The position numbers and the translations under genes are program-made. This document shows, one piece after another, positions 14,938 through 45,921 of a stretch of DNA of 64,000 bases. Under the pieces are notes generated by a model that did no database searches, was not told the DNA's origin, and worked only from the letters and a program-made list of their open reading frames with translations. This DNA comes from an uncultured Gammaproteobacteria bacterium (lineage in GTDB: Bacteria > Patescibacteriota > Patescibacteriia > HK-STAS-PATE-3): NCBI GenBank assembly GCA_964637345.1, contig CAZWTD010000002.1, forward strand, positions 6,426-70,425. The letters are read 5' to 3'. Each line of letters begins with the position of its first letter. Positions within the stretch are counted from its first letter, which is position 1.

Positions 14938-17289
14938 TTACTCAAGAAGACGAGATCGGCGAAGGAGAGAGGCGCCGGCGACAAGGAAGCTTAGGCCAAG
15001 CAGCGCGAGGAGCGCATCGAGGGCCCCAGGTCCCGTTTCCGGAAGCGTGTCTTCCGCCCCAAGCACTTGCCCATTTGTTGCAGGTGTTTCATCGTCGTTC
15101 GTGTCTTCTGCGCCGAGAACTGAGCCCACAACAACGGCGACGCGCGCGGTCGAAGAAAGAGGATCAAGTCCATCCGCGCTCACGCGGGCAATATTGTCAT
15201 AAGTGCCTGCGCTCGCTGAGGGGGCAACCTTCGCCTCGTAGGTCGTTGTAATACTTTCTCCGGCCGGGATCGTACCAAGCATTTTCGCCATCGTTGTTGA
15301 ATCTGAGTCGGAGAAAGTGAAGGAGGTCGGTAGGGTATCGGTCAGAACAACATTCGTCGCAGCGTCAGATCCCGAGTTTTTTACTTTGACGGTGTAGGTG
15401 ACGACTGAACCCGGATGTGCTGATTCCCGATTCGCCGTTTTTTCAATTGTGAGCTTGGGTGAAGATGTAAGTGTCACGTCGGCGCTCGCCTCGAACGAAT
15501 CAACGCCCTTGGCCCGGACATTTGCGGTATTGATAACAATCGTATTGTCCTGAACAGTTGCGTCAACCTGTGTTGTCACTGAGAGTACGTACGAGTTTGG
15601 GGAAAGTGTTCCGAGGGACCACGTCACTGTCCGCGTCGCAGCGTCATAACTCGAACCGGAGCTTGCTTCAACAAAGGTGAGGTGTTCCGGGAGGGGATCG
15701 GAAACAATCACGTCTTCGGCATTTGCGTCGCTTACATTGAGCGTTAGGAAGTAGGTGATTGTTCCGCCAGCGGCTTGAATAGAGGCATTCGCTGATTTTT
15801 CAAGAGTGAGCTTTGGCGTAAGTGTTGGATCTCCTTCGTTTTCGCCACTCGCTTGGTAGTTTCCGAAGTTGAGGTTAGCAATTGTCTCTCCGAAGCCAAG
15901 CGAAATCGGGCCATGCATGGCGCTCGGCGTTCCCGGAAAGCTCTGGGTCCAGTCCGGCTGCATGACTTCTCGGACGAAGTAGGTTCCTGCGTAGGCCGGG
16001 GAGAAGGCATATGATCCGTCAACGGCTGTATGAGTTGTAGCGATTACCGTCGGGCTCCCGGTGAGGTTTCCGCCATTGCTGAAGGGGATGCCGAAACAGG
16101 CTAGGTCAAGGCGACTAATCACTCCGTCATGGTTCAAGTCAACGTTGGGGTTGAAGTTTTGGAACCCTTGCGTCCAGGCGACGAAATCTGACAGGTCAAT
16201 GATGTCGTTATCGTAGTAGTCGTATTCGTTGATATCTTGAGAGCAGGTCGTCAGAAGCTCGACAGTCCAGTGTTCGATGCCGTTTTCCTGGTTGTCCCAG
16301 TTGGTATTCTCATTTTCATCATTCCACTTGCCGCCGGAAATGGATCCCTGGCAGAGACCGAAGAAATGTTCAGTCGTCGCCGTTGAGCGGTTGTCATCCA
16401 GGTTTCGTTCAGGGTAGGGGACGTCCTGACTCGACGGAACTGGAGCAGGAAGAACTTGCTCAATGTCGGCGGTGTTCACGAGTCGTTCGCAGGTTAGAAC
16501 CGACGCGTCAATTGTTACCGTAAGCGAAATAGATCCAGTTTCGCCGATATCGAGCATTGGAATCGTCCAGGTCGCTACTCCGTTATTTACAGAGTCGGGG
16601 GTAGGCGTGGACGAGGCGATCGTTGCGCCGTGAGGAAGGACGTCATTCAGAACAACGTTGTAGGCCGGCCAGTTTCCTGTGTTTGCATAATTGATAACAT
16701 AGGTAATCCCCGTAAGTTTTTCCCCGTTCTCGGCAATTTTTTTATCAACTTGGAGATCAGGGTTTTTCGGGCAGAAACGTTGGGTTGTTGAAGTGGTATC
16801 TTCGACAATGCCGTCGTCCTCCGGAGTTGAAGCGGGTCCGACGCCACGAATATTGGCGGTATTCGTCACGGAAACGCATTCGGTCAGGGCGCCGAAGTCG
16901 AACGATGTGTCGAGGGAGACCGTCCCGTCGGTGTGCCCCGGGAGCGTGCCGATATTCCAGCTCACTGAATGAGAAACCGGATCGTAGGTTCCGCCATTCG
17001 AGGCGCTCATAAAACTAGACGTGGTGGGGAGCTTATCGGTGATGACGACATTGAAAAGCGTTATCCCTCCAGCGTTTTTGTACGATAAGACATACCCGGT
17101 GTCATTTGCTGGGTTGACGCTTTTTATAAGCTCCAGTGGGGAGGTGCCGGGGATAGCCGGTTCAGACGGAAGTACGGCCGCGGTCGTCAGGAGCGGCTGA
17201 GCGAGCAATCCAAAAAGAGTCGATACTGAAAGAATGAAGCGAGCGAGTCGCTGCCCCTTTCTCCAGTTTGATGCATATGATGGGTTCAT
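14938..17289 (-). CDS. large LPETG-anchored surface protein with DUF11 (conserved repeat) domains and dockerin-like Ca-binding motif
   Basis: Strong SD (GAGGAGG) before the ATG at 17289. Signal peptide, multiple LTYTxxVxNxGxxxAxNVVxTDxLP-type repeats, and NVDLNHDGVISRLDLA (dockerin/EF-hand-like). The C-terminus reads GQVLGAEDTLPETG followed by a hydrophobic stretch and RRSRLLE, a classic cell-wall sorting signal. Confidence 0.75.
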   Translation of the reverse strand: MNPSYASNWRKGQRLARFILSVSTLFGLLAQPLLTTAAVLPSEPAIPGTSPLELIKSVNPANDTGYVLSYKNAGGITLFNVVITDKLPTTSSFMSASNGGTYDPVSHSVSWNIGTLPGHTDGTVSLDTSFDFGALTECVSVTNTANIRGVGPASTPEDDGIVEDTTSTTQRFCPKNPDLQVDKKIAENGEKLTGITYVINYANTGNWPAYNVVLNDVLPHGATIASSTPTPDSVNNGVATWTIPMLDIGETGSISLTVTIDASVLTCERLVNTADIEQVLPAPVPSSQDVPYPERNLDDNRSTATTEHFFGLCQGSISGGKWNDENENTNWDNQENGIEHWTVELLTTCSQDINEYDYYDNDIIDLSDFVAWTQGFQNFNPNVDLNHDGVISRLDLACFGIPFSNGGNLTGSPTVIATTHTAVDGSYAFSPAYAGTYFVREVMQPDWTQSFPGTPSAMHGPISLGFGETIANLNFGNYQASGENEGDPTLTPKLTLEKSANASIQAAGGTITYFLTLNVSDANAEDVIVSDPLPEHLTFVEASSGSSYDAATRTVTWSLGTLSPNSYVLSVTTQVDATVQDNTIVINTANVRAKGVDSFEASADVTLTSSPKLTIEKTANRESAHPGSVVTYTVKVKNSGSDAATNVVLTDTLPTSFTFSDSDSTTMAKMLGTIPAGESITTTYEAKVAPSASAGTYDNIARVSADGLDPLSSTARVAVVVGSVLGAEDTNDDETPATNGQVLGAEDTLPETGPGALDALLALLGLSFLVAGASLLRRSRLLE

Positions 17290-17429
17290 GAGTACCTCCT
17301 CGTAAGTATTGAACGAATGAATCACGCGAAAATGTCTTTCACCGACGTTTTTAGGGTGAAAAGGAGCATCTCTAGCGTGTCAGGCATCATAGCATAGCCC
17401 TTGGTTTCGCCACAAACAGCCGTATTCTG

Positions 17430-19637
17430 TCAATCGAGTTCAGGAATCCGACGTCGGAAGAGCGTAACACCCAGTAACAGGCTCGTGAGTCCGAATGCGA
17501 GAATGCCATACTCGATTGGACTGGCTCCGGTTTCGGTCAGCGCTCCGAGCACTTGTCCGCGTTGGACAGTAATCGCTGCAGTGGCGGTCAATTGGGCAAC
17601 ATTATCTCCAACCACGCGTGCCGTGTTGATGAGTTGGCCGGCAGCGGCCGAGGCGCTCACGCGGACAGCGACGTGAATAATTCGTTCGTGGCCGGGGAGC
17701 AAATCCCCGAGCCTCCAGGTTGCCGTGCTTCCAGAGTAGTCAACAAAGGAGAGGCCGGCCGGAACTTCGTCGGTTAGCCGGAGGTTATACGCCGGGGCCA
17801 GTCCGTCGTTCCTGACGCTAAGGGTGTAGGTGACAACGCCCCCAATCGGAACAGTTGAGCGGTCGGCGACTTTTGTCAGAGTGAGCTTTGGACTTGGCGT
17901 ATTCGTTGGAATCACCAAACTTGAGACCTCAACCGTTGCTTTTGCATTCCGCGTTGGATGGTTTGAAGAGCTAACCGTAGCCACATTCTGATAACTTCCT
18001 GCTTTTGTGTCAGTCTTCACGACGACTGCATAGGTAAGGGTCCGGCTCGTTTCAGCTTTGAGCGTGCCAATCGGGAAGGAGCGATCAGTCGCTCCATTGT
18101 CGAGATAAACGAAGCCGGTCGGCAGAACATCCGAGACGACAACCTGAAGCGCGTCGCCGCTTCCCGTGTTTGAAACGACAATGGTGTAGAGGATTGTTTC
18201 ACCGGGCTTCACCGAGTCTTTGTCAGCAGATTTCACGATCGTGAGTTTCGGTGCGCCGCCTACCGTCAGCGATGCTGATGCACTCACCGGCTGTGCGTTG
18301 TCAGCCGAGAGCGTCGCGGTGTTATTGAGTTTTGCGCCAGGTTGCGTTCCAGCAGCGACTCGCGTCTGGACAGTCACGCTACCGCTGTCGCCTGGTTGGG
18401 CGCTTCCGAGCGTCCAGTTGATTTCGCGCGTTGGCGCGTTGTATGCGCCGCCGTTGCTCGCGCTGACAAAAGTGAGGCCCTCGGGCAGAGGATCGCGCAA
18501 GAGTAGTCCGTTGACTGCCTCGGTTCCGCTGACTGACCACGCGAGCGTGTAGGTGACAAGCTCGTTCGGAAGCGCAAGCGTCGGCGCTACCTCTTTAGTG
18601 AGGTGGAGCATCGCCAAGCTCGTGACAGTTGTGCTCGCGGAAGCCTGAACAGGTTTTAGCTCACTGGCCGAGAGGGTCGCGGTATTGGTAATCACTGTCC
18701 CGTTCGCGAGAGGGGAGATAATCTCTGCTGTCCACTGGACGCTGCCGTGGGCCCCGGGAGCTTGGTTACCCAAATTCCAGCGAAGTTCGTTCAGGTTGGG
18801 ATCGTACACGCCGCCTTGTGAGATTGTTGCAAAGATGAGATTGGCTGGAATTGGGTCGGTAAGAACCAGGTCGTATGCCGGACCGCTTCCGCTGACATTC
18901 CACGCAAGGGTATAGGTTAGCGTTGTTCCTGGAGCGGCAATTTCCGCGCTCACGGTTTTTTCTAGACCGATAGAAGGGATGCTTTCAATAGTTGTCGTTG
19001 CCGAATCAGACACTGGGTCAAGCCGGTCAGCGTCAATTGTTGCGGTATTTGTAATGACTGTCCCATTGCCGACCAGAGTATTGATCGTCCCGGTCCAGGT
19101 GAGCATCCCGTGTGCGCCGGATGCTTGGGTTCCGAGCGTCCAGGTAATGGTTGCAGTCCCAGAATCGTAGATCCCGCCGTTTTCGGCTTGCACGAAGCTC
19201 AGCTCTGTTGGAACGGGGTCTGTTACGACAACATTCGTGGCAGTTCCGTTTCCGCCAATGGACCAGTGAAGGGTGTACGTGAGCAAGTCGCCAGGATGTG
19301 CAAGGCTAAGGTCGACCTGTTTGTCGAGGTTGATTGTTGGGTGATTGGCTGGACTTGGGAGCGGAGCGGACGCAGTTGCTGGGGGTTCCGGCGACGTTTC
19401 AGGCTCTTCCGATTGGGTGGTTGATGGTTCCGTAGTTGAATTCGACCGTAGAGCGGGAGTGAGGTTATCCGCGAAGACGGCGGTCTCGGATTCTGGAATA
19501 GCCGCCTCTGTTGCTTCGAGGGTTTTTCCATACGCGAACCCAGGAAGGCAGGCTTGAAGAACAAGACTGACAAGTGCAATCACGGCCATTTTTCGACCGA
19601 AGCGCTGGCGGGAACGGAACACAGAGAAGTTCGGCAT
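17430..19637 (-). CDS. large DUF11-repeat surface protein with LTETG-type C-terminal anchor signal
   Basis: Start moved to MPNFSVFRS (ATG 19635-19637), which precedes a signal peptide. There are about 6 tandem DUF11-like repeats (LTYTLHWSIGGNGTATNVVVTDPVP...). The C-terminus reads RGQVLGALTETG followed by a hydrophobic stretch and FRRRIPELD. Confidence 0.7.
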   Translation of the reverse strand: MPNFSVFRSRQRFGRKMAVIALVSLVLQACLPGFAYGKTLEATEAAIPESETAVFADNLTPALRSNSTTEPSTTQSEEPETSPEPPATASAPLPSPANHPTINLDKQVDLSLAHPGDLLTYTLHWSIGGNGTATNVVVTDPVPTELSFVQAENGGIYDSGTATITWTLGTQASGAHGMLTWTGTINTLVGNGTVITNTATIDADRLDPVSDSATTTIESIPSIGLEKTVSAEIAAPGTTLTYTLAWNVSGSGPAYDLVLTDPIPANLIFATISQGGVYDPNLNELRWNLGNQAPGAHGSVQWTAEIISPLANGTVITNTATLSASELKPVQASASTTVTSLAMLHLTKEVAPTLALPNELVTYTLAWSVSGTEAVNGLLLRDPLPEGLTFVSASNGGAYNAPTREINWTLGSAQPGDSGSVTVQTRVAAGTQPGAKLNNTATLSADNAQPVSASASLTVGGAPKLTIVKSADKDSVKPGETILYTIVVSNTGSGDALQVVVSDVLPTGFVYLDNGATDRSFPIGTLKAETSRTLTYAVVVKTDTKAGSYQNVATVSSSNHPTRNAKATVEVSSLVIPTNTPSPKLTLTKVADRSTVPIGGVVTYTLSVRNDGLAPAYNLRLTDEVPAGLSFVDYSGSTATWRLGDLLPGHERIIHVAVRVSASAAAGQLINTARVVGDNVAQLTATAAITVQRGQVLGALTETGASPIEYGILAFGLTSLLLGVTLFRRRIPELD

Positions 19638-19952
19638 GGGTGCTCGAAGGTTAATCAAGATGATAATGAAAAAGCCAACGAAAGAGGACAAGAAAAAACG
19701 AAGAGACAGAAACTCCGTTTTGTTCGCTTTCGTTGGCTTTTCCCCGTCCTCCGCGGGTTTTTCAAGAAAGAACAAGTGCGAAAATGTGCGCGATCCCTCC
19801 GAAGGTGCGATGAATGTTTTGGGTGTTCTTTTCACAGGAAACCTTAGCAATCACTTTCGTTTGTGTCAACGTTAGCACAACATACTTTTCGTCCCTGTCA
19901 AGATAAAAAGCAAAGAGGGGAATCCGAGATTCTTCGTTGGAAAAATGAAGTT

Positions 19953-32920: not shown

Positions 32921-32990
32921 AAGTGGTTGACGCGAATAGGAAAGTGGTATAAAATGGATGAAGAAGGGTGAAAAGTGGATAAAAGTGGGG
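32921..32990 (+). promoter_or_regulatory. mraZ promoter region with four phased GTGG direct repeats (candidate MraZ boxes) and a TTGAC/TATAAAAT promoter
   Basis: GTGG occurs at 32922, 32943, 32974 and 32984, a spacing of about 10 or 21 nt. TTGAC (32926) and TATAAAAT (32947) lie upstream of mraZ. Confidence 0.4.
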
Positions 32991-33043
32991 ATAAGTCCGA
33001 AGAAGAGTGGACAACCCAATATCCCGCCCGAATACACGATTCT

Positions 33044-33475
33044 ATGTTTATCGGCGAATATTATCACGCGGTTGATGAAAAAGGGCGGCTCGCCATCCCG
33101 ATTAAGTTCCGGGAAGAGCTGTCGAAAGGGGCAGTCGTTACGCGCGGGCTCGATAACTGTCTTTTCCTCTACACCCAGAAAGAGTGGGAAGCCCTCGCCG
33201 GAAAACTCGCCAATTTGCCAATCGCCCGAGCGAATACCCGGGCTTTTTCGCGGTTAATGCTTGCCGGGGCGATGGACGTCGAAATCGACAAGCAGGGGAG
33301 AGTCGTCCTCCCTGATTATTTGCGGAAGTTTGCCGGGTTAAAGAAGAAAGTCGTTGTGGCTGGGCTCTATAACCGCCTTGAACTTTGGGATGAACTGGCC
33401 TGGAGCCGCTACAAGGCCTCAACGGAGAAGACAAGCAGTGATATCGCCGAAGCGCTCGGAGAACTCGGCGTCTAA
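33044..33475 (+). CDS. mraZ: transcriptional regulator MraZ
   Basis: Two tandem MraZ/SpoVT-AbrB-like repeats. The start codon is ambiguous between 32975 and 33044. It is the first gene of the dcw cluster. Confidence 0.8.
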   Translation: MFIGEYYHAVDEKGRLAIPIKFREELSKGAVVTRGLDNCLFLYTQKEWEALAGKLANLPIARANTRAFSRLMLAGAMDVEIDKQGRVVLPDYLRKFAGLKKKVVVAGLYNRLELWDELAWSRYKASTEKTSSDIAEALGELGV

Positions 33476-34433
33476 GCGCCCTTCAAAAAATCAAACCGGA
33501 CATATTCCGGTTCTCCTGACGGAAACCCTCGCCTGGCTCAGTCTAAGGCCTGGCGACCACAGCCTCGATCTCACGGTCGGCGGAGGTGGTCACGCGGCCG
33601 CGCTCCTTGAAGCGACAGGTCCAGCAGGAAAGCTTATCGGCTTTGACGCTGATCCAGACACGCTCGCGATCGCTCGCGAACGGCTCCGGGCCTACGGCCG
33701 CCGAGTCCATCTCATCCACGCCAACTTTCGCGATTGTCGCGCCATACTCAATGATCAATTTCCAGACTTTCGACCTCGCGCTGTTCTACTTGACCTTGGC
33801 CTCTCTTCATTGGCACTCGGGGCAGCTCATTCCAGATTTTCTTTCCTAGGTAAGGGACCGCTCGATTTCCGCTTTGATCCGACCCGAGAGGGGACGACCG
33901 CCGCGGATCTCGTGAATACCGCTCGCGAAGATGAGCTTATCGAGATGTTCCGGAGCTACGGCGAGGAGCCAGAAGCGAAGCGGATTGCCCGGGCGATTAT
34001 CGCTCGGCGCAAGGAAGCGCCGATTCACTTCACTCAGGAGCTCAGTGAAGTCATTGTCGCTGCGCTTCCAAAAGGCCGGCGCCCCGGACGCATCCATCCG
34101 GCAACGCGAAGCTTCCAGGCGCTGCGGATCGCCGTGAACGACGAACTCGGAGCCCTTGAACAGGTTCTCCCTGATCTCCTCGAAGTAGTCCCGAAGGGTG
34201 GACGGCTCGCAGTTCTGAGCTACCACTCGCTCGAAGACCGGATCGTGAAGCATTTCTTCCGGAATGAAGCGCGCGACTGCCTTTGCCCGGCCGAACAGCC
34301 GACCTGCACCTGCGGACATCGCGCCAAGCTCCGCGTCCTTACCCCGCATCCCATTATTCCATCTCCGACTGAACAAACTCACAACCCGCGATCCCGGAGC
34401 GCCAAGCTCCGCGTCGCAGAAAGGATAGCCTGA
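33438..34433 (+). CDS. rsmH: 16S rRNA (cytosine1402-N4)-methyltransferase RsmH (MraW)
   Basis: HIPVLLxE N-terminal motif, SAM-binding DLTVGGGGHA, and a C-terminal region typical of RsmH. Probable GTG start inside the 3' end of mraZ. The track ORF at 33354 has no ATG. Confidence 0.8.
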   Translation: MISPKRSENSASKRPSKNQTGHIPVLLTETLAWLSLRPGDHSLDLTVGGGGHAAALLEATGPAGKLIGFDADPDTLAIARERLRAYGRRVHLIHANFRDCRAILNDQFPDFRPRAVLLDLGLSSLALGAAHSRFSFLGKGPLDFRFDPTREGTTAADLVNTAREDELIEMFRSYGEEPEAKRIARAIIARRKEAPIHFTQELSEVIVAALPKGRRPGRIHPATRSFQALRIAVNDELGALEQVLPDLLEVVPKGGRLAVLSYHSLEDRIVKHFFRNEARDCLCPAEQPTCTCGHRAKLRVLTPHPIIPSPTEQTHNPRSRSAKLRVAERIA

Positions 34434-34789
34434 TGAGCCTTCTGACCACCCGAACCCGACGAACAGTAGCCCAAGATCTCGCTGCAAATCTTGTAACGAC
34501 GATTAAGGTACGCATGACAGCGCTTACGCTTGTTGGGATTTTTTTAAGCTTAGCGGGCGGAATTACCTATCTCACGTTGATTAACCGGACCGCGACAACG
34601 GGTTTTGAGATTAAAGCGCTCGAGCAGCGAGTCAGCGAGCTCCGCGATACAAACCGAAAGCTTGAACTTCAGGCAACCCAGCTTCGTTCGCTTTCAACAG
34701 TCGAGTCAGCGACCGAGTCGCTCGGACTGACCCAGGTCGCCCAGATAGAGTACCTTCCGACCGGGACGACCGCAGTCGCGCAAAAGTAA
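34433..34789 (+). CDS. ftsL: FtsL-like cell-division protein
   Basis: Small protein with one TM helix and a coiled-coil (ALEQRVSELRDTNRKLELQATQLR). It sits in the canonical position between rsmH and ftsI. Confidence 0.5.
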   Translation: MSLLTTRTRRTVAQDLAANLVTTIKVRMTALTLVGIFLSLAGGITYLTLINRTATTGFEIKALEQRVSELRDTNRKLELQATQLRSLSTVESATESLGLTQVAQIEYLPTGTTAVAQK

Positions 34790-34795
34790 GCACCT

Positions 34796-36550
34796 ATGTC
34801 CGTCCCTCGACGCGGTTCCCGGCCAACGAAGCCACGTCGGTCTTTGGATCGGCTGACAGTCGCCGTTATTGCGCTTTTTAGCTTTGCGGCGATCATTATC
34901 TTCCGTTTATTCACTCTCCAGGTTCTCGCGCACGGGTTTTATGAAACCCTAGCCGCTGGACAGTATGAAATTGCTGAGCGTTTAGTCCCGACCCGAGGAG
35001 ATATTCTTGTTCGCGATCGTTTTTCGGGCGACACCTTATTTCCCCTCGCAACAAACGAGGATTTATATTTAGCGTACGCGGTTCCGAAACGCGTGGAGGA
35101 TCCGGCTGGGGCCGCGGAGAAGCTGGCCGACATGCTTGAGCTTCCAGTCGAGGAGATTCTTCCGCGTTTAGAAAAGTCTGACGATCTGTACGAGCCCTTG
35201 AAACGAAAGGTGACCGAGGAAACGAAAACGGCGATTGATGAGCTGAATCTTCGGGGAATTGAATTTGCCCGAGAGAGTAATCGCTATTATCCGGAAGGCG
35301 AAATCGGGAGTCACATTCTTGGTTTTGTGGGCTACGACGGGAATGAACGAAAAGGTCAGTATGGACTCGAAGCTGCGTTCCAAGAGGAGCTCGCCGGGAA
35401 GGCCGGGATGTTGACCGCCGAGCGCGATGCGGCCGGTCGTTGGATTACTGTTTCGGATAAAATGCTTGAAGAGGCTCAAGACGGAGATGATTTGATTCTC
35501 ACAATCGATCGGACCGTTGAGTATACGGTGTGCACAAAGCTCTCTGAAGCTGTTCAGAAGCACGGCGCAACGGGCGGGAGCGCAATAGTTATGGATCCAA
35601 ACACCGGCGCAATCCTCGCGATGTGCGGATATCCAGACTATGATCCGAATGAGTACAATAAAGTTGAAAACATCAACGCCTTCATCAATCCTTCGCTCCA
35701 GTCCTACGAGCCGGGTTCGATTTTTAAGCCGATCACTATGGCGGCCGCGCTTGACCAGGGCAAGGTAACACCGGCGTCAACCTATGAGGATACTGGAAGC
35801 GTTGAGATCGCGAACTTCACGATTAAAAACTCTGACGGGAAGGCCCACGGGACCGCGACGATGACGCAGGTACTTGAGGAGTCACTGAACACCGGGGCAA
35901 TCTATGCGGCCGAACAAGTCGGGCCCGAGAAGTTTCTCGAGTATGTTCAGAAATTCGGCTTTGGGGAAAAAACGGGAATTGAGCTTGGCGGTGAATCGGC
36001 TGGAACTCTCGGCGAACTCCCAACCGGAAAAGAAATCTATATGGCTACCTCTTCGTTCGGCCAAGGGTTGACAACGACACCTTTGCAGATGGCCGCAGCG
36101 TACGCGGCGATCGCCAACGGCGGGAAACTCTATACACCATACCTAGTGGACGAGATTGTGAAACCGAACGACTATCGCGTGAAAACTGAACCGACGCTTG
36201 TTCGCCAAGTGATTGATGCAAAAACGGCAACGACGCTATCGGCGATGCTGGTGAATGTTGTGAAAGGGTCGCACGGGAGACGGGCCGGCGTTCCGGGTTA
36301 CTATATCGCCGGGAAAACCGGAACAGCCCAGATTCCCCGAAAGGACGGACCGGGCTACGATCCGAATCGGACCATCGGCTCTTTCGCCGGCTTTGGGCCG
36401 GTTGAAAACCCGAAGTTCGTTATGGTGGTAAAAATTGAGGATCCGAAAGACGTGCGCTTTGCGGAAAGCACGGCCGCCCCGCTCTTCGGCGAGATCGCGC
36501 AGTTCCTTATGAACTATTACGAAGTTCCGCCTAGCGCACCAAGGGAGTAA
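34796..36550 (+). CDS. ftsI: penicillin-binding protein (class B transpeptidase, FtsI/PBP2-like)
   Basis: N-terminal TM, dimerisation domain, SxxK (SIFKP), SxN, and KTGT (KTGTAQ) motifs. Confidence 0.85.
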   Translation: MSVPRRGSRPTKPRRSLDRLTVAVIALFSFAAIIIFRLFTLQVLAHGFYETLAAGQYEIAERLVPTRGDILVRDRFSGDTLFPLATNEDLYLAYAVPKRVEDPAGAAEKLADMLELPVEEILPRLEKSDDLYEPLKRKVTEETKTAIDELNLRGIEFARESNRYYPEGEIGSHILGFVGYDGNERKGQYGLEAAFQEELAGKAGMLTAERDAAGRWITVSDKMLEEAQDGDDLILTIDRTVEYTVCTKLSEAVQKHGATGGSAIVMDPNTGAILAMCGYPDYDPNEYNKVENINAFINPSLQSYEPGSIFKPITMAAALDQGKVTPASTYEDTGSVEIANFTIKNSDGKAHGTATMTQVLEESLNTGAIYAAEQVGPEKFLEYVQKFGFGEKTGIELGGESAGTLGELPTGKEIYMATSSFGQGLTTTPLQMAAAYAAIANGGKLYTPYLVDEIVKPNDYRVKTEPTLVRQVIDAKTATTLSAMLVNVVKGSHGRRAGVPGYYIAGKTGTAQIPRKDGPGYDPNRTIGSFAGFGPVENPKFVMVVKIEDPKDVRFAESTAAPLFGEIAQFLMNYYEVPPSAPRE

Positions 36551-37096
36551 ACGCTTGGTAGAGAAGGAGGTGGGTCATGGAGGAGTATCGCTTCTTTGAG
36601 GGAGAAGCGCTTCACTGGGTGACCGGACGGATTGAACGGTATTGCGCCTGGTATCGAATTCGGCGCCTACCTGATGGCTCTGAAGAATGGACCCGCTGTC
36701 CTGGAATCACGTTCCTCGGACAAGCCTGCGCCCCCGTTCACCTGAACGCGGGCGCTTTTCGAAAAAAAAGAACCCGGAGGAGCGGAGCCCATGCAGGAAT
36801 TCTGCAGTGGGATCCGTCCTCCGGGAAACGGCGACTCGTCGAGGCCTACCTCGGATTGGCAGTCGAGAGCCGCCCTGATAGGGGACCGACGCGGACTTAC
36901 CGCGAGGGTTGGGAATGCGGCATTCCGCGTCGGTTCGAGTCCTTGGACAGATTTGAGCGGCTTCTCCCCGCAGAGTTCCTATCTCATATCCATCCGACTC
37001 GACAACAAAGAGCAGAAGGAGTCTACTCGGTTTTCGGTAACATGTCAAGGGCGGAAGAAACAATTCGTGGATTGTCTAGCCAATGGTATACTATCA

Positions 37097-38428
37097 ATGG
37101 CTACTATGACGAAAGAATCGTTGCTCCGAAAACTCGAAAATCTCTTAGCTTGGCTGAGCCTACGGATCATTCGGAAATATCGTCCGGATATTATTGCCGT
37201 GACCGGCAGCGTTGGAAAGACCGGAACAAAGGATGCGATTTTTTGCGTCCTCGCTGGTTCGTTTGGCGTTCGGAAAAGTGAAGGAAACTTAAACAATGAA
37301 CTTGGTTTACCACTTTCGATTTTGGGTGAACGATCAGGCGGGCGGAATCCCTTCGCGTGGCTTCGTATCCTCGGGAAGGCCTTTCGTTTTCTCCTCCAGT
37401 CTCGGCCCTTTCCCGAACTGCTCATCCTTGAGATGGGAGCAGATCACCCCGGCGATCTCGAGCGCTTAACCCAGATTGCTCGGCCGCGCGTGAGCGTGAC
37501 CACGGCCGTCGCGCCGGTTCATACGGAATTTTTTTCCTCACTCGAGGCGCTCGCTGCAGAGAAGGCGACGCTCGCTCGGCGGACCGAGCCCGACGGATAT
37601 ACCATCTTGAACGCCGATGATCCGGTGGTCATCGGGTTCCGTGACAAAACGGATGCGCGGGTGCTTTCCTATGGCTTTTCGCCAGAAGCGGATCTTCGGG
37701 CAACTTCGTTTGACGTCATTCGTTCAACGAAGGAACATATTCCGAGCGGATTGCGCTTTATCTTATCGTATGAGGGAAAGCACGTTGAAGTAACGCTGCA
37801 CGGAGCGCTTGGTCGTCCTGCAGTGAGCGCCGCCTTAGCCGGCGCAGCTGTTGGTATCGTTTACGGCCTTGAGTTGTCCGCAATAGCCGAAGCGCTCGGA
37901 CATCTCCAAATGCCGAAAGGCCGCCTTCGACCGCTCCGAGGGATTAATCAGTCTTTGCTCATCGACGACACCTACAACGCAAGCCCCCGCGCCGCAATCG
38001 CCGCACTGGATGTTTTGGGTGACCTGGCTGAAGCGCCCGCGTCCGATCGAGGAGCGAACTCCGGTCGGCGGATTGCCGTGTTTGGGAACATGGCCGAACT
38101 CGGGCATTTGAGCGAGGCGGGACATCAAGAGGTCGGGGAGCATGCTGCAAAAATCTGCGATCTCCTCATTACGGTCGGGGACCTCGCGAAGGGGATAGGC
38201 GCGGGCGCGGTTAAGGCGGGGTTCGCCGCGAAGCGCGTCGCGAGCTTTGAGGATCAAAGTTCGGCTCTACATCTTCTTCGTCAGGAAATTGGTCCGAAGG
38301 ATCTCATCCTTATTAAAGGTTCTCAATCGGCTCGGATGGAAAAGCTGACCGCTGCGCTGCTTGAAAACCCGGCCGACGCGCAACTCCATCTTGTGCGCCA
38401 AGGGCCGGAGTGGACGCGGCCGCATTGA
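37097..38428 (+). CDS. murF: UDP-N-acetylmuramoyl-tripeptide--D-alanyl-D-alanine ligase
   Basis: Mur-ligase P-loop AVTGSVGKTGTKD at residue about 35, with central and C-terminal Mur ligase domains. The start was moved to MATMTKESL. The N-terminal domain appears short compared with E. coli MurF. Confidence 0.8.
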   Translation: MATMTKESLLRKLENLLAWLSLRIIRKYRPDIIAVTGSVGKTGTKDAIFCVLAGSFGVRKSEGNLNNELGLPLSILGERSGGRNPFAWLRILGKAFRFLLQSRPFPELLILEMGADHPGDLERLTQIARPRVSVTTAVAPVHTEFFSSLEALAAEKATLARRTEPDGYTILNADDPVVIGFRDKTDARVLSYGFSPEADLRATSFDVIRSTKEHIPSGLRFILSYEGKHVEVTLHGALGRPAVSAALAGAAVGIVYGLELSAIAEALGHLQMPKGRLRPLRGINQSLLIDDTYNASPRAAIAALDVLGDLAEAPASDRGANSGRRIAVFGNMAELGHLSEAGHQEVGEHAAKICDLLITVGDLAKGIGAGAVKAGFAAKRVASFEDQSSALHLLRQEIGPKDLILIKGSQSARMEKLTAALLENPADAQLHLVRQGPEWTRPH

Positions 38429-38495
38429 CCGGATCCGGAGAAAAAGGTAAAATAAGAGCGCCGTCGGAGAAAAACGCGACGGCGCAAAAAATAGC

Positions 38496-43659: not shown

Positions 43660-44139
43660 TCACTGCAGATTATCAACGATAATTCCTCGGGGAGTTCCCG
43701 TCAGGCGCTGTTGTGCTGATGACCAGGGATATTCCTCGGGTCGCTGACAAAGTCCGGCGCGAACTGGATTAAGATGGATGTAGGTTGCTTTCACCCTGTA
43801 ATCTTCTGATCCTCGAATTCCATGATCGTAGTACTCGCGTTGAAATACTCGTCCCGAGCTATTGTTGAGTTCATGAAATCGCCGTGCGAAGCTGCTGTGG
43901 ATTGCTTGCATTAAGTGGCCGAGCGATTCCCTCTGTGCGGGTAGTACGATGGCGTGATAATGGTCAGGCATGAGGACATATTCAAAAACGACAAAGTGGT
44001 ATTTTGCCCTTTGTTCGTTGATTATGTGTTCCATGGATCGGGCAAAAACAGGATCAAGGAACCATTGTTTTCGATAGAGAAAATTGACCGTGACAAAAAA
44101 CGGTATAGTGTGTATCCGGAGACGTTTTCGGGTCCACAT
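43660..44139 (-). CDS. REP-associated tyrosine transposase (RAYT; IS200/IS605 Y1 transposase family)
   Basis: HuH motif PDHYHAIV and a catalytic Tyr region (YIHLNPVRAG). The size of 159 aa is typical. It is flanked by REP-like hairpins on both sides. Confidence 0.75.
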   Translation of the reverse strand: MWTRKRLRIHTIPFFVTVNFLYRKQWFLDPVFARSMEHIINEQRAKYHFVVFEYVLMPDHYHAIVLPAQRESLGHLMQAIHSSFARRFHELNNSSGRVFQREYYDHGIRGSEDYRVKATYIHLNPVRAGLCQRPEEYPWSSAQQRLTGTPRGIIVDNLQ

Positions 44140-45314: not shown

Positions 45315-45921
45315 GGATTACCTCCTCTATTCCGGTGTGAAGGTGCGGTACCTCGCGCCTTTCTTAGTACAAAAAAGAGGAAAAGTCAATAGAAAGGCCC
45401 CGCGCGCTGCAAGTGACAGGACCGGGAACAGAGCAGCAGCGCGCGGGGGTTCAGACGGAACGATACGCAGTTGATTTGGCTCTACCGCTTGATTCCGCGG
45501 GGCGAGAGGGTAGGATCCTCAAGGCGGCGTCAAACGGGCACTCTAAGTATAAACCTGACGGCAAAAGCGTCAAGAGAAAGCGCCGCGGCCCGTACTCAAC
45601 CACGAGGGGCTGGTTGAGTTGATGGGGCGGCCGCGGCGCTGGCTTCGTTCGTACTTGTTCGGCGTGATTCCTCGCGCAGAGGGTGGGAAACACCGAACAA
45701 GGTGCGTGGGGGTGACTACCAGGGCGGTAGTCATGTCGGCCAGGGGCTGAAGCTTGGGGACGAATCACGGTCGATGGGTCCGAAGCCGAAGCTTCGGAAT
45801 GCTGCGCGCGCCATCGGCGTTTTCGTTCCATATTCTCCAGGCCTTCCGAGCAGGAAGAGCATAGCGGAGCGGGATGACGATGTCAACGATTCTTTTAAAA
45901 AGGTGTGCTAGACTGTTGCCT

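Follow-up and report, generated by a model that had tools for sequence, protein, structure and literature searches.

The 64-kb stretch of DNA analyzed here (referred to below as the window) is part of a contig of the Patescibacteria (the candidate phyla radiation, CPR), its best MurF and FtsI homologues being named Nomurabacteria, Kerfeldbacteria, or "Patescibacteria group bacterium," and it carries a portion of the dcw cluster in which mraZ, rsmH, an ftsL-like gene, and ftsI are followed by murF, with an interval of 546 nt (36551-37096) between the last two. The initial annotation, made from the sequence alone, had described this gene order correctly, and had taken the interval for a structured gap with no credible protein, at a place where murE would be expected. 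The interval contains a conserved small protein gene and hairpin-plus-tract structures that are conserved in position, and the extra DNA at this junction is lineage-specific. On balance, we lean toward an interpretation of the interval as a clade-specific module of four parts, the small gene, a pair of terminators, a candidate antisense or small RNA unit on the minus strand, and a promoter for murF, placed at a normally tight junction that would represent an operon boundary.

The ftsI-murF junction in Patescibacteria

A total of 95 related loci were recovered (designated here by numbers with the prefix L), and the distance from the ftsI stop to the murF start was measured in them, while a MurF-profile scan of a genome collection, in which the relatives among the matches listed were at most 42% identical, was used for the phylum context. 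In 29 of the 37 Patescibacteria-type loci, murF follows ftsI at a distance of 100 nt or less (median 20), with no murE separating the two, and in the Firmicutes-type loci that have murE at this junction the distance is approximately 1.65-1.86 kb. The MurF of the window is recognized by both of its Pfam domains (E-values of 6.7e-25 and 3e-16), its best matches in PDB are MurF structures, and its score against TIGR01143 is 267 bits, the cut-off being 288.6. The absence of the N-terminal domain 1 (approximately 80 residues in the Escherichia coli MurF), suspected from the start, is borne out by an alignment in which residue 18 of the window protein corresponds to residue 92 of 1GG4, and all of the 120 MurF homologues listed are likewise short, at 413-463 aa, and start level with residue 4 of the window protein. 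A short MurF encoded directly behind ftsI (at -21 to +100 nt; loci L004-L037) appears to be a general trait of Patescibacteria. With ftsI and murF adjacent in most of these loci and the short MurF found throughout, the "expected" murE and the "truncated" MurF are therefore matters of lineage norm: judging from these gene orders, ftsI followed directly by a short murF is the rule in Patescibacteria, and murE is not expected at the junction. The statement that murE, murD, murC, mraY, and ftsW are absent from the window does hold, as no further Mur ligase and no mraY or ftsW were found among its 39 long open reading frames (ORFs) scanned with Pfam. Exact-sequence look-ups of the window FtsI and MurF returned no record, and in one paper on the evolution of the dcw cluster the CPR genomes were excluded from the analysis.

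The real peculiarity of the window, as seen from the comparison of these loci, is the presence of extra DNA at the junction (0.55-2.3 kb), in one clade, with a content that varies by member. A distance of more than 400 nt is found in the nearest relatives only (764 nt in L092, 562 nt in L090, 1588 nt in L091, and 2310 nt in L002). One example of the cargo is presented by L089 and L001, whose ends overlap and which thus represent one genome, with a Y1 (IS200-like) transposase and repeats resembling repetitive extragenic palindromes (REP). Another example is L002, with three genes and non-coding DNA, and a third is L091, with a gene of 310 aa on the minus strand. As a separate observation, in several relatives (L084-L087 and two P0003 contigs, all sampled independently) the contig breaks off at 245-450 nt on the upstream side of murF, which suggests that assemblers break in the spacer through repeats or strain variation.

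A small gene and a face-to-face pair of terminator-like hairpins

As to the supposed lack of a credible protein, the first approximately 207 nt behind the ftsI junction's Shine-Dalgarno sequence encode a small protein that is conserved in three relatives, so that a bona fide protein does occupy the 5' third of the gap, an outcome that the initial annotation had allowed for, only with no frameshift correction needed. The strong Shine-Dalgarno sequence before ATG 36577, the A8 run, and the long ORF overlapping murF, all of them noticed earlier, are present. This ORF, the only long one in the gap, reads from 36577 to 37281 (234 aa), with an overlap of 185 nt with murF, and the arrangement of a Shine-Dalgarno sequence plus ATG is likewise found in L092, L090, L089, and L088. 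The homologue in L092, also recorded as P0241, is 80 aa long (BLASTP, 58% identity over 72 aa, E 7e-26; phmmer, E 1e-17), the one in L089 is 99 aa long (48% identity, E 1e-12), and the one in L090 is 73 aa long (42% identity, E 1e-15). P0241 was recovered from among 1.84 billion representative proteins in an exhaustive HMMER search, and the closer relatives were found through FtsI. The gapless BLOSUM62 score is 122 in the frame of the small ORF versus 38-54 in the other five frames, the frame of the small ORF is the only one that lacks stops in each of the three genomes compared, and the same residues are often specified by different codons across the homologues. The homology extends through the A8 run (FRKKRTRRS in the window versus FLKKRPRRS, with the KKRxRRS motif kept in P0241), and the length of this run is therefore not a sequencing or frameshift error.

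The small protein is rich in aromatic and basic residues, with a beta-rich N-terminal part of approximately 47 residues and the basic tail KKRxRRS. An AlphaFold model, built from an alignment of two sequences, gives three beta strands over residues 1-47 at a predicted local distance difference test score (pLDDT) of approximately 79, and disorder from residue 48 on. A Foldseek comparison of the model with PDB gave nothing below E 0.3, the ORF has no match in Pfam, NCBIfam, or PHROGs, and a word-indexed search of 5.8 billion clusters with the 234-aa ORF retrieved no homologue, not even the ORF itself, for which reason the small gene appears to be missing from the source annotation. By its homology to the ORFs of the relatives, the segment 36577-36783 is a conserved, unannotated small protein gene confined to a narrow clade. 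The homologues end at 73-99 aa, and the remaining 165 residues of the window frame have no homologue among either the 5.8 billion clusters or the 1.84 billion representatives; their codon-usage scores range from -4 to +6, versus a mean of 16.4 and a 5th percentile of 5.6 for real genes, and we judge this tail not to be meaningfully coding.

Some candidates for kinship were set aside. The L088 ORF of 63 aa is syntenic but not demonstrably homologous (BLASTP E 0.82, with no detection by the family profile), and the 172-aa ORF that follows ftsI in L002 has no detectable similarity to the window ORF. The segment LPDGSEEWTR (36664-36693, residues 30-39) is similar to the core unit repeated in SBBP-type beta-propellers and in other repeat proteins (for example, FQPDGTQDWTR and LPDGSEEWRN), with multi-stretch phmmer matches to proteins of 444-5807 aa. 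As only the motif PDGSxxWTR, repeated many times in those proteins, is in common, a beta-propeller kinship was judged spurious, and LPDGSEEWTR is probably a short convergent motif.

Two hairpins meet at the T/A tract that follows codon 60 of the small ORF. The plus-strand hairpin, H+, lies within the ORF, at codons 51-60, the Pro and Gly codons forming its stem and the Phe codon its T-tract, and each of the five genomes (the window, L092, L090, L089, and L088) has a hairpin with a T-tract at the equivalent codons, with stems that differ in sequence. The stop codon of the small ORF starts 7-524 nt past the H+ stem in these genomes, beyond the T-tract in four of the five and within it in L088. 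The layout in the sequence is thus the one of pyrL-type leader peptides, with an ORF that reads through the hairpin and a stop codon downstream. Measured against an intrinsic terminator, H+ has a good stem, yet only UUUU before CG. The minus-strand hairpin, H- (H4 in the fold of the unit described below), is by prediction much the stronger of the two and has the form of a Rho-independent terminator, a GC-rich stem-loop followed directly by a U8 run. Its outer stem (CCCGGAGGA/TCCTCCGGG) is kept in L092, where the inner stem differs in sequence yet pairs, and L090 has an analogous minus-strand hairpin in the same place. No segment of the interval is better conserved than the T/A tract, which is 88% identical to that of L092. 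Structure and conservation are observed, and a function of the two hairpins as terminators facing each other would follow from them.

The candidate minus-strand unit and the predicted promoter of murF

The part of the gap between H- and murF may represent a transcription unit of its own, read on the minus strand from a promoter near murF toward ftsI and stopped at H-. A sigma-70-type promoter-like site (TTGACA-17-TAGACT, matching the consensus at 10 of 12 positions) would place the start near 37013, giving a transcript of 252 nt. Sites scoring at least 10/12 are found only nine times on both strands of the window (128 kb scanned), and of the other eight, one immediately precedes mraZ and another the asparaginase-like gene, an indication that the motif is meaningful in this organism. 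The gap is more stable than its dinucleotide shuffles on both strands, in agreement with the earlier description of it as structured, with a z-score of -3.3 on the plus strand and -5.7 on the minus strand. For the 252-nt unit, the minimum free energy is -124.2 kcal/mol, the z-scores are -5.97 on the minus versus -4.56 on the plus strand (-6.07 versus -3.47 in a second computation), and the numbers of G-U pairs in the fold are 6 and 2, respectively. The local hairpins named earlier do exist, GGAATGC/GCATTCC inside H2 (36885-36934) and TGCAG-GAATT-CTGCA at the apex of H4 (36773-36825). The T-loop-like GGTTCGAGTCC turned out to be the junction of H2 and H1, with flanks (GTCGG/CCTTG) that are not complementary, with no tRNA or tmRNA called by ARAGORN, and with no Rfam match.

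The unit has no credible ORF by a six-frame translation inspected by eye, the ATG-led ORFs on the minus strand being of 4-8 codons with no Shine-Dalgarno sequence, and the comparison with relatives reveals no conserved coding frame beyond the small ORF, codon-usage scores being far below those of real genes. Such short ORFs, along with a plus-strand protein that is not hydrophobic, do not agree with a type I toxin-antitoxin system. In the whole window, the sole Rfam match at the gathering threshold is a tRNA-Pro (2492-2564), and the five loci of relatives scanned have none. In the gap, even at E<=10, Rfam yields no family of relevance, only g2 and microRNA/snoRNA families at 15-23 bits, versus thresholds of 50-96. 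Of the initial proposal of a structured non-coding RNA, what stands is a segment of approximately 250 nt that is unusually structured, has no ORF, and carries its signals on the opposite strand; a known Rfam family and conservation in the nearest relative do not.

Promoter-like sites on the minus strand are also found in the spacers of the relatives, two in L092, one in L090 (11/12), two in L088, and two to three in L002, with only one such site on the plus strand in these four spacers. Predicted minus-strand terminators are found in the equivalent spacers of L092, L090, and L002, and hairpins of L088 were read as such by eye, the scan not reporting them. The L092 spacer thus holds two minus-strand units and the L090 spacer one, and several of the relatives' units, though not all, are strongly structured (z -4.4 to -7.1). 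What is conserved is the punctuation (promoter, terminators, and richness in hairpins), and not the sequence.

Just ahead of murF lies a predicted extended -10 promoter, whose box ends 4 nt before ATG 37097 and 13 nt before ATG 37106, the latter being probably the true start, judging from the homologues' start points. The motif TGnTATACT or TATACT is found 4-20 nt ahead of the murF start in L001, L002, L084/85, and L092, and L088 has TGCTATAAT at this position. A TATACT or TATAAT box is thus near the murF start in six of the six genomes compared, with TG before the box in five of them. The promoter segment is 66% identical to that of L092, in which the start context CTACTATG of murF (window 37097-37108) is also kept. 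As the box is positioned right before the start, the gap would lie upstream of the promoter and would therefore not be a leader of murF, the cis-regulatory role proposed for it initially, and the mRNA of murF probably has little or no leader. The next genes downstream of murF are, in order, an asparaginase-like gene, a hypothetical one, and a DUF2207 gene. A promoter-like site on the plus strand (TTGACC-17-TAAAAT, 38425-38453) overlaps the murF stop, just upstream of the asparaginase-like gene (38496), and murF may be monocistronic.

Table 1. Positions, in the window, of the genes and predicted elements discussed in the text.
Feature	Position	Strand	Details
mraZ	32975-33475		by gene order
rsmH	33354-34433		by gene order
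ftsL-like	34433-34789		by gene order
ftsI	34796-36550		stop codon 36548-36550
Shine-Dalgarno sequence AGAAGGAGG	36562-36570	+	6 nt before ATG 36577, 11 nt past ftsI stop
Small protein gene, conserved residues 1-69	36577-36783	+	approximately 207 nt; homology in relatives
Terminator-like hairpin H+ (GCGCCCCCG...CGGGCGC), then TTTTCG	36728-36755, tract to 36761	+	by folding
A8 run	36762-36769		predicted U-tract of minus-strand terminator; encodes conserved Lys-Lys of small protein
Predicted non-coding transcript, 252 nt	36762-37013	-	hairpins H1 (37002-36935), H2 (36934-36885), H3 (36874-36830), terminator H4
Predicted intrinsic terminator H- (H4), 53-nt hairpin, then UUCUUUUUUUU	36773-36825	-	-39.3 kcal/mol
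Sigma-70-type promoter-like site TTGACA-17-TAGACT	37048-37020	-	10/12 match; start near 37013
Predicted extended -10 promoter of murF TGGTATACT	37084-37092	+	-10 box 37087-37092
murF, short form	37097-38428	+	Mur_ligase_M and Mur_ligase_C
Promoter-like sites of tandem units (>=10/12)	45886-45858, 45573-45546	-
Terminator hairpins of tandem units, predicted	45639-45580, 45461-45398	-	-38 and -31 kcal/mol, respectively

Competing explanations and the meaning of the proposed module

Several points weigh against the interpretation of the interval as a four-part module. The promoters and terminators in question are consensus predictions only, and the plus-strand hairpin is followed by only four U's. 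The frame of the small ORF in the window stays open as far as 37281, an oddity for a normal gene. The body of the minus-strand unit is 29-49% identical to L092, which is about the level of a forced alignment, it has no significant local alignment to L090, a covariance model of the window H1-H3 finds no match in nine relatives' loci, and RNAalifold run on the window and L092 recovers the terminator only. Structure accompanied by covariation, the mark of a conserved structured RNA, is not seen among the few close genomes at hand, and with no conserved sequence and no model matches, a conserved function that depends on structure is therefore unproven. The equivalent unit of L092 folds equally well on both strands, and so the hairpins could be palindromes at the level of DNA. 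The cargo of L089/L001 and L091, a Y1 transposase and a 310-aa minus-strand gene, respectively, is also quite different. Some of these points agree with an explanation in which the spacer, leaving aside the small gene and the terminators, is an insertion scar, functionless, fast-decaying DNA at a hot spot, with incidental hairpins and hexamers: the cargo differs even among close relatives, the body of the spacer is conserved neither in sequence nor by covariance model, the two strands of the L092 unit are equally stable, and in several relatives the contig is interrupted just before murF. However, promoter-like sites are scarce (the nine in 128 kb), yet at least one is present on the minus strand in each relative's spacer, such a site is paired with a downstream minus-strand terminator in the window, L092, L090, and L002, and z-scores of -5 to -7 recur at the same place in unrelated sequences. 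Nor does the gap resemble mobile DNA: it has no second copy in the window beyond chance 12-13-mers, no long-range inverted repeats and nothing in the way of a REP, a bacterial interspersed mosaic element (BIME), or a miniature inverted-repeat transposable element (MITE) were found within the 64 kb, and searches of phage and plasmid DNA gave no plasmid or meaningful phage match, only one chance hit of 42 nt. We regard the scar as a tentative possibility, on the doubtful side.

It seems improbable that the full 234-aa ORF is a real protein, the small protein recently extended at its C-terminus into murF, even if the N-terminus is conserved and 234 open codons are not likely to occur by chance (as estimated from base composition). 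The homologues stop much earlier, as does the syntenic L088 ORF, the tail lacks both homologues and the codon usage of real genes, disorder is predicted already from residue 48, and the tail would have to cross two terminators, the antisense of the minus-strand unit, the murF promoter, and 185 nt of murF. More unlikely still is a structured RNA on the plus strand, in the form of either a murF leader or riboswitch or an independent RNA. Folding on the plus strand does beat the shuffles (z -3.3 to -4.6), but the fold of the minus strand exceeds it both in stability and in the number of G-U pairs, no Rfam family is found at E<=10, no plus-strand promoter-like site lies within the gap, the murF -10 box leaves no room for a leader with either ATG, the 5' third of the gap encodes a protein, and most of the phylum has no spacer. 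Finally, a decayed murE or a lost N-terminal domain of MurF has position only in its favor, murE lying between ftsI and murF in many phyla, such as in the Firmicutes-type loci above. Six-frame translations with stops masked reveal no Pfam family, and thus no Mur ligase signal, at E<=10, ftsI abuts a short murF across Patescibacteria, and the MurF homologues listed share both their size range and their start point, so that we give this explanation almost no chance.

How the four-part module would work can be outlined as follows. The small protein would be translated from its own strong Shine-Dalgarno sequence just past ftsI, and the transcript from the mraZ promoter (mraZ through ftsI and the small ORF) would end, or be attenuated, at the H+ embedded in the ORF, with murF restarted independently from its own extended -10 promoter. 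The convergent minus-strand transcript would be halted face to face with the plus-strand transcript, and its RNA may block or destabilize read-through, act as a cis-antisense to the read-through RNA, or represent a lineage-specific small RNA (sRNA) acting in trans. Since the stop codon of the small ORF is downstream of the H+ stem, a ribosome translating the ORF would melt the hairpin, and termination at H+ could depend on how closely translation trails transcription. A bolder proposal, which we consider unlikely to be correct as a whole, is that the small ORF with its embedded terminator is a translation-sensing attenuator that gates transcription of the ftsI operon toward murF, with the minus-strand RNA as an antagonist, an undescribed control point for the synthesis of cell-wall precursors in the CPR, the small protein itself being a novel factor in division or in the cell wall. 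In such an attenuator, the Pro/Gly codons would double as the stem, the Phe codons as the U-tract, and the Lys codons as the U-tract of the opposing terminator.

Known systems offer partial parallels. In the pyrBI operon of E. coli, a short leader ORF, pyrL, is translated through an intrinsic terminator, and a closely following ribosome prevents termination. The small ORF of the window is similarly read through a hairpin, with its stop past the stem (and, except in L088, past the U-tract), but it encodes a conserved, probably folded domain of approximately 47 residues rather than a simple sensor. Neither a pause region rich in U nor any logic tied to a metabolite is apparent, the downstream murF would be served by a promoter of its own, a predicted antisense unit runs convergently between the two genes, and the window case is known from sequence alone. 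Another parallel is with the convergent or bidirectional terminators at operon boundaries, as two GC-rich hairpins lie on either side of one T/A tract and would halt transcription arriving from both sides. In this case, however, the plus-strand member is inside a coding sequence and has a weak tract of four U's, and the minus-strand member ends a unit with no gene. A third parallel is with small RNAs of the dcw genes. In E. coli, DicF acts on ftsZ, and the antisense StfZ is in the ftsA-ftsZ region. Like these, the window unit is a (predicted) transcript, short and non-coding, that is bounded by a promoter and a terminator of its own and lies within or acts on dcw genes, but it has no sequence or Rfam relationship to them, and even the nearest relative does not share its sequence. 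As for MurF, the window protein shares the central ATP-binding and the C-terminal domains with the E. coli enzyme (UDP-MurNAc-tripeptide--D-Ala-D-Ala ligase, PDB 1GG4) and differs by the lack of the approximately 80-residue N-terminal domain, the short form being common to the Patescibacteria homologues recovered.

Some other features of the window deserve mention. Two small units lie in tandem on the minus strand at 45398-45886, with no Rfam match and no convincing ORF, and they are further sRNA candidates, each with a predicted promoter and a very strong predicted terminator hairpin (Table 1). The T-run of the terminator overlaps the next -35 box (TTTCTCTTGAC, TTTCTATTGAC), a layout of terminator into promoter that is also found in L002 and L092. 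A loose terminator scan of the window gave 143 hits and is not discriminating; it was used only to spot the very strong hairpins near 45.4-45.6 kb. A gene for a Y1_Tnp transposase (IS200-like, RAYT-like; Pfam E 1.9e-9) is present at 43660-44139 on the minus strand, and L089/L001 has a similar Y1 transposase (L001 2-568) at the junction, behind the small ORF and ahead of murF, with REP-like flanks (GTGGCGCAT..T.TT.GA..GCGCC). At 14938-19850, on the minus strand, two adjacent DUF11-repeat proteins of approximately 800 aa are encoded beside CARDB/NPCBM_assoc-type and Big_2 proteins, forming a cluster of large surface-repeat proteins of the kind typical of CPR genomes.

Overall, the elements at the ftsI-murF junction are of ordinary kinds (a small gene that had been overlooked, terminators, an RNA unit that is a candidate for an antisense or small RNA, and the murF promoter), in a tidy arrangement and in a poorly studied phylum. 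The apparent anomaly is corrected in that the dcw cluster is not broken, the adjacency of ftsI and murF and the short MurF being normal for Patescibacteria, and a conserved small protein gene beside ftsI is recovered. Candidates for non-coding units bounded by promoters and terminators are flagged, both at the gap and at 45.4-45.9 kb, in a phylum for which, to our knowledge, almost no regulatory RNAs have been described. If confirmed, the terminator embedded in the small ORF would present a tidy case of a sequence serving as both code and signal.

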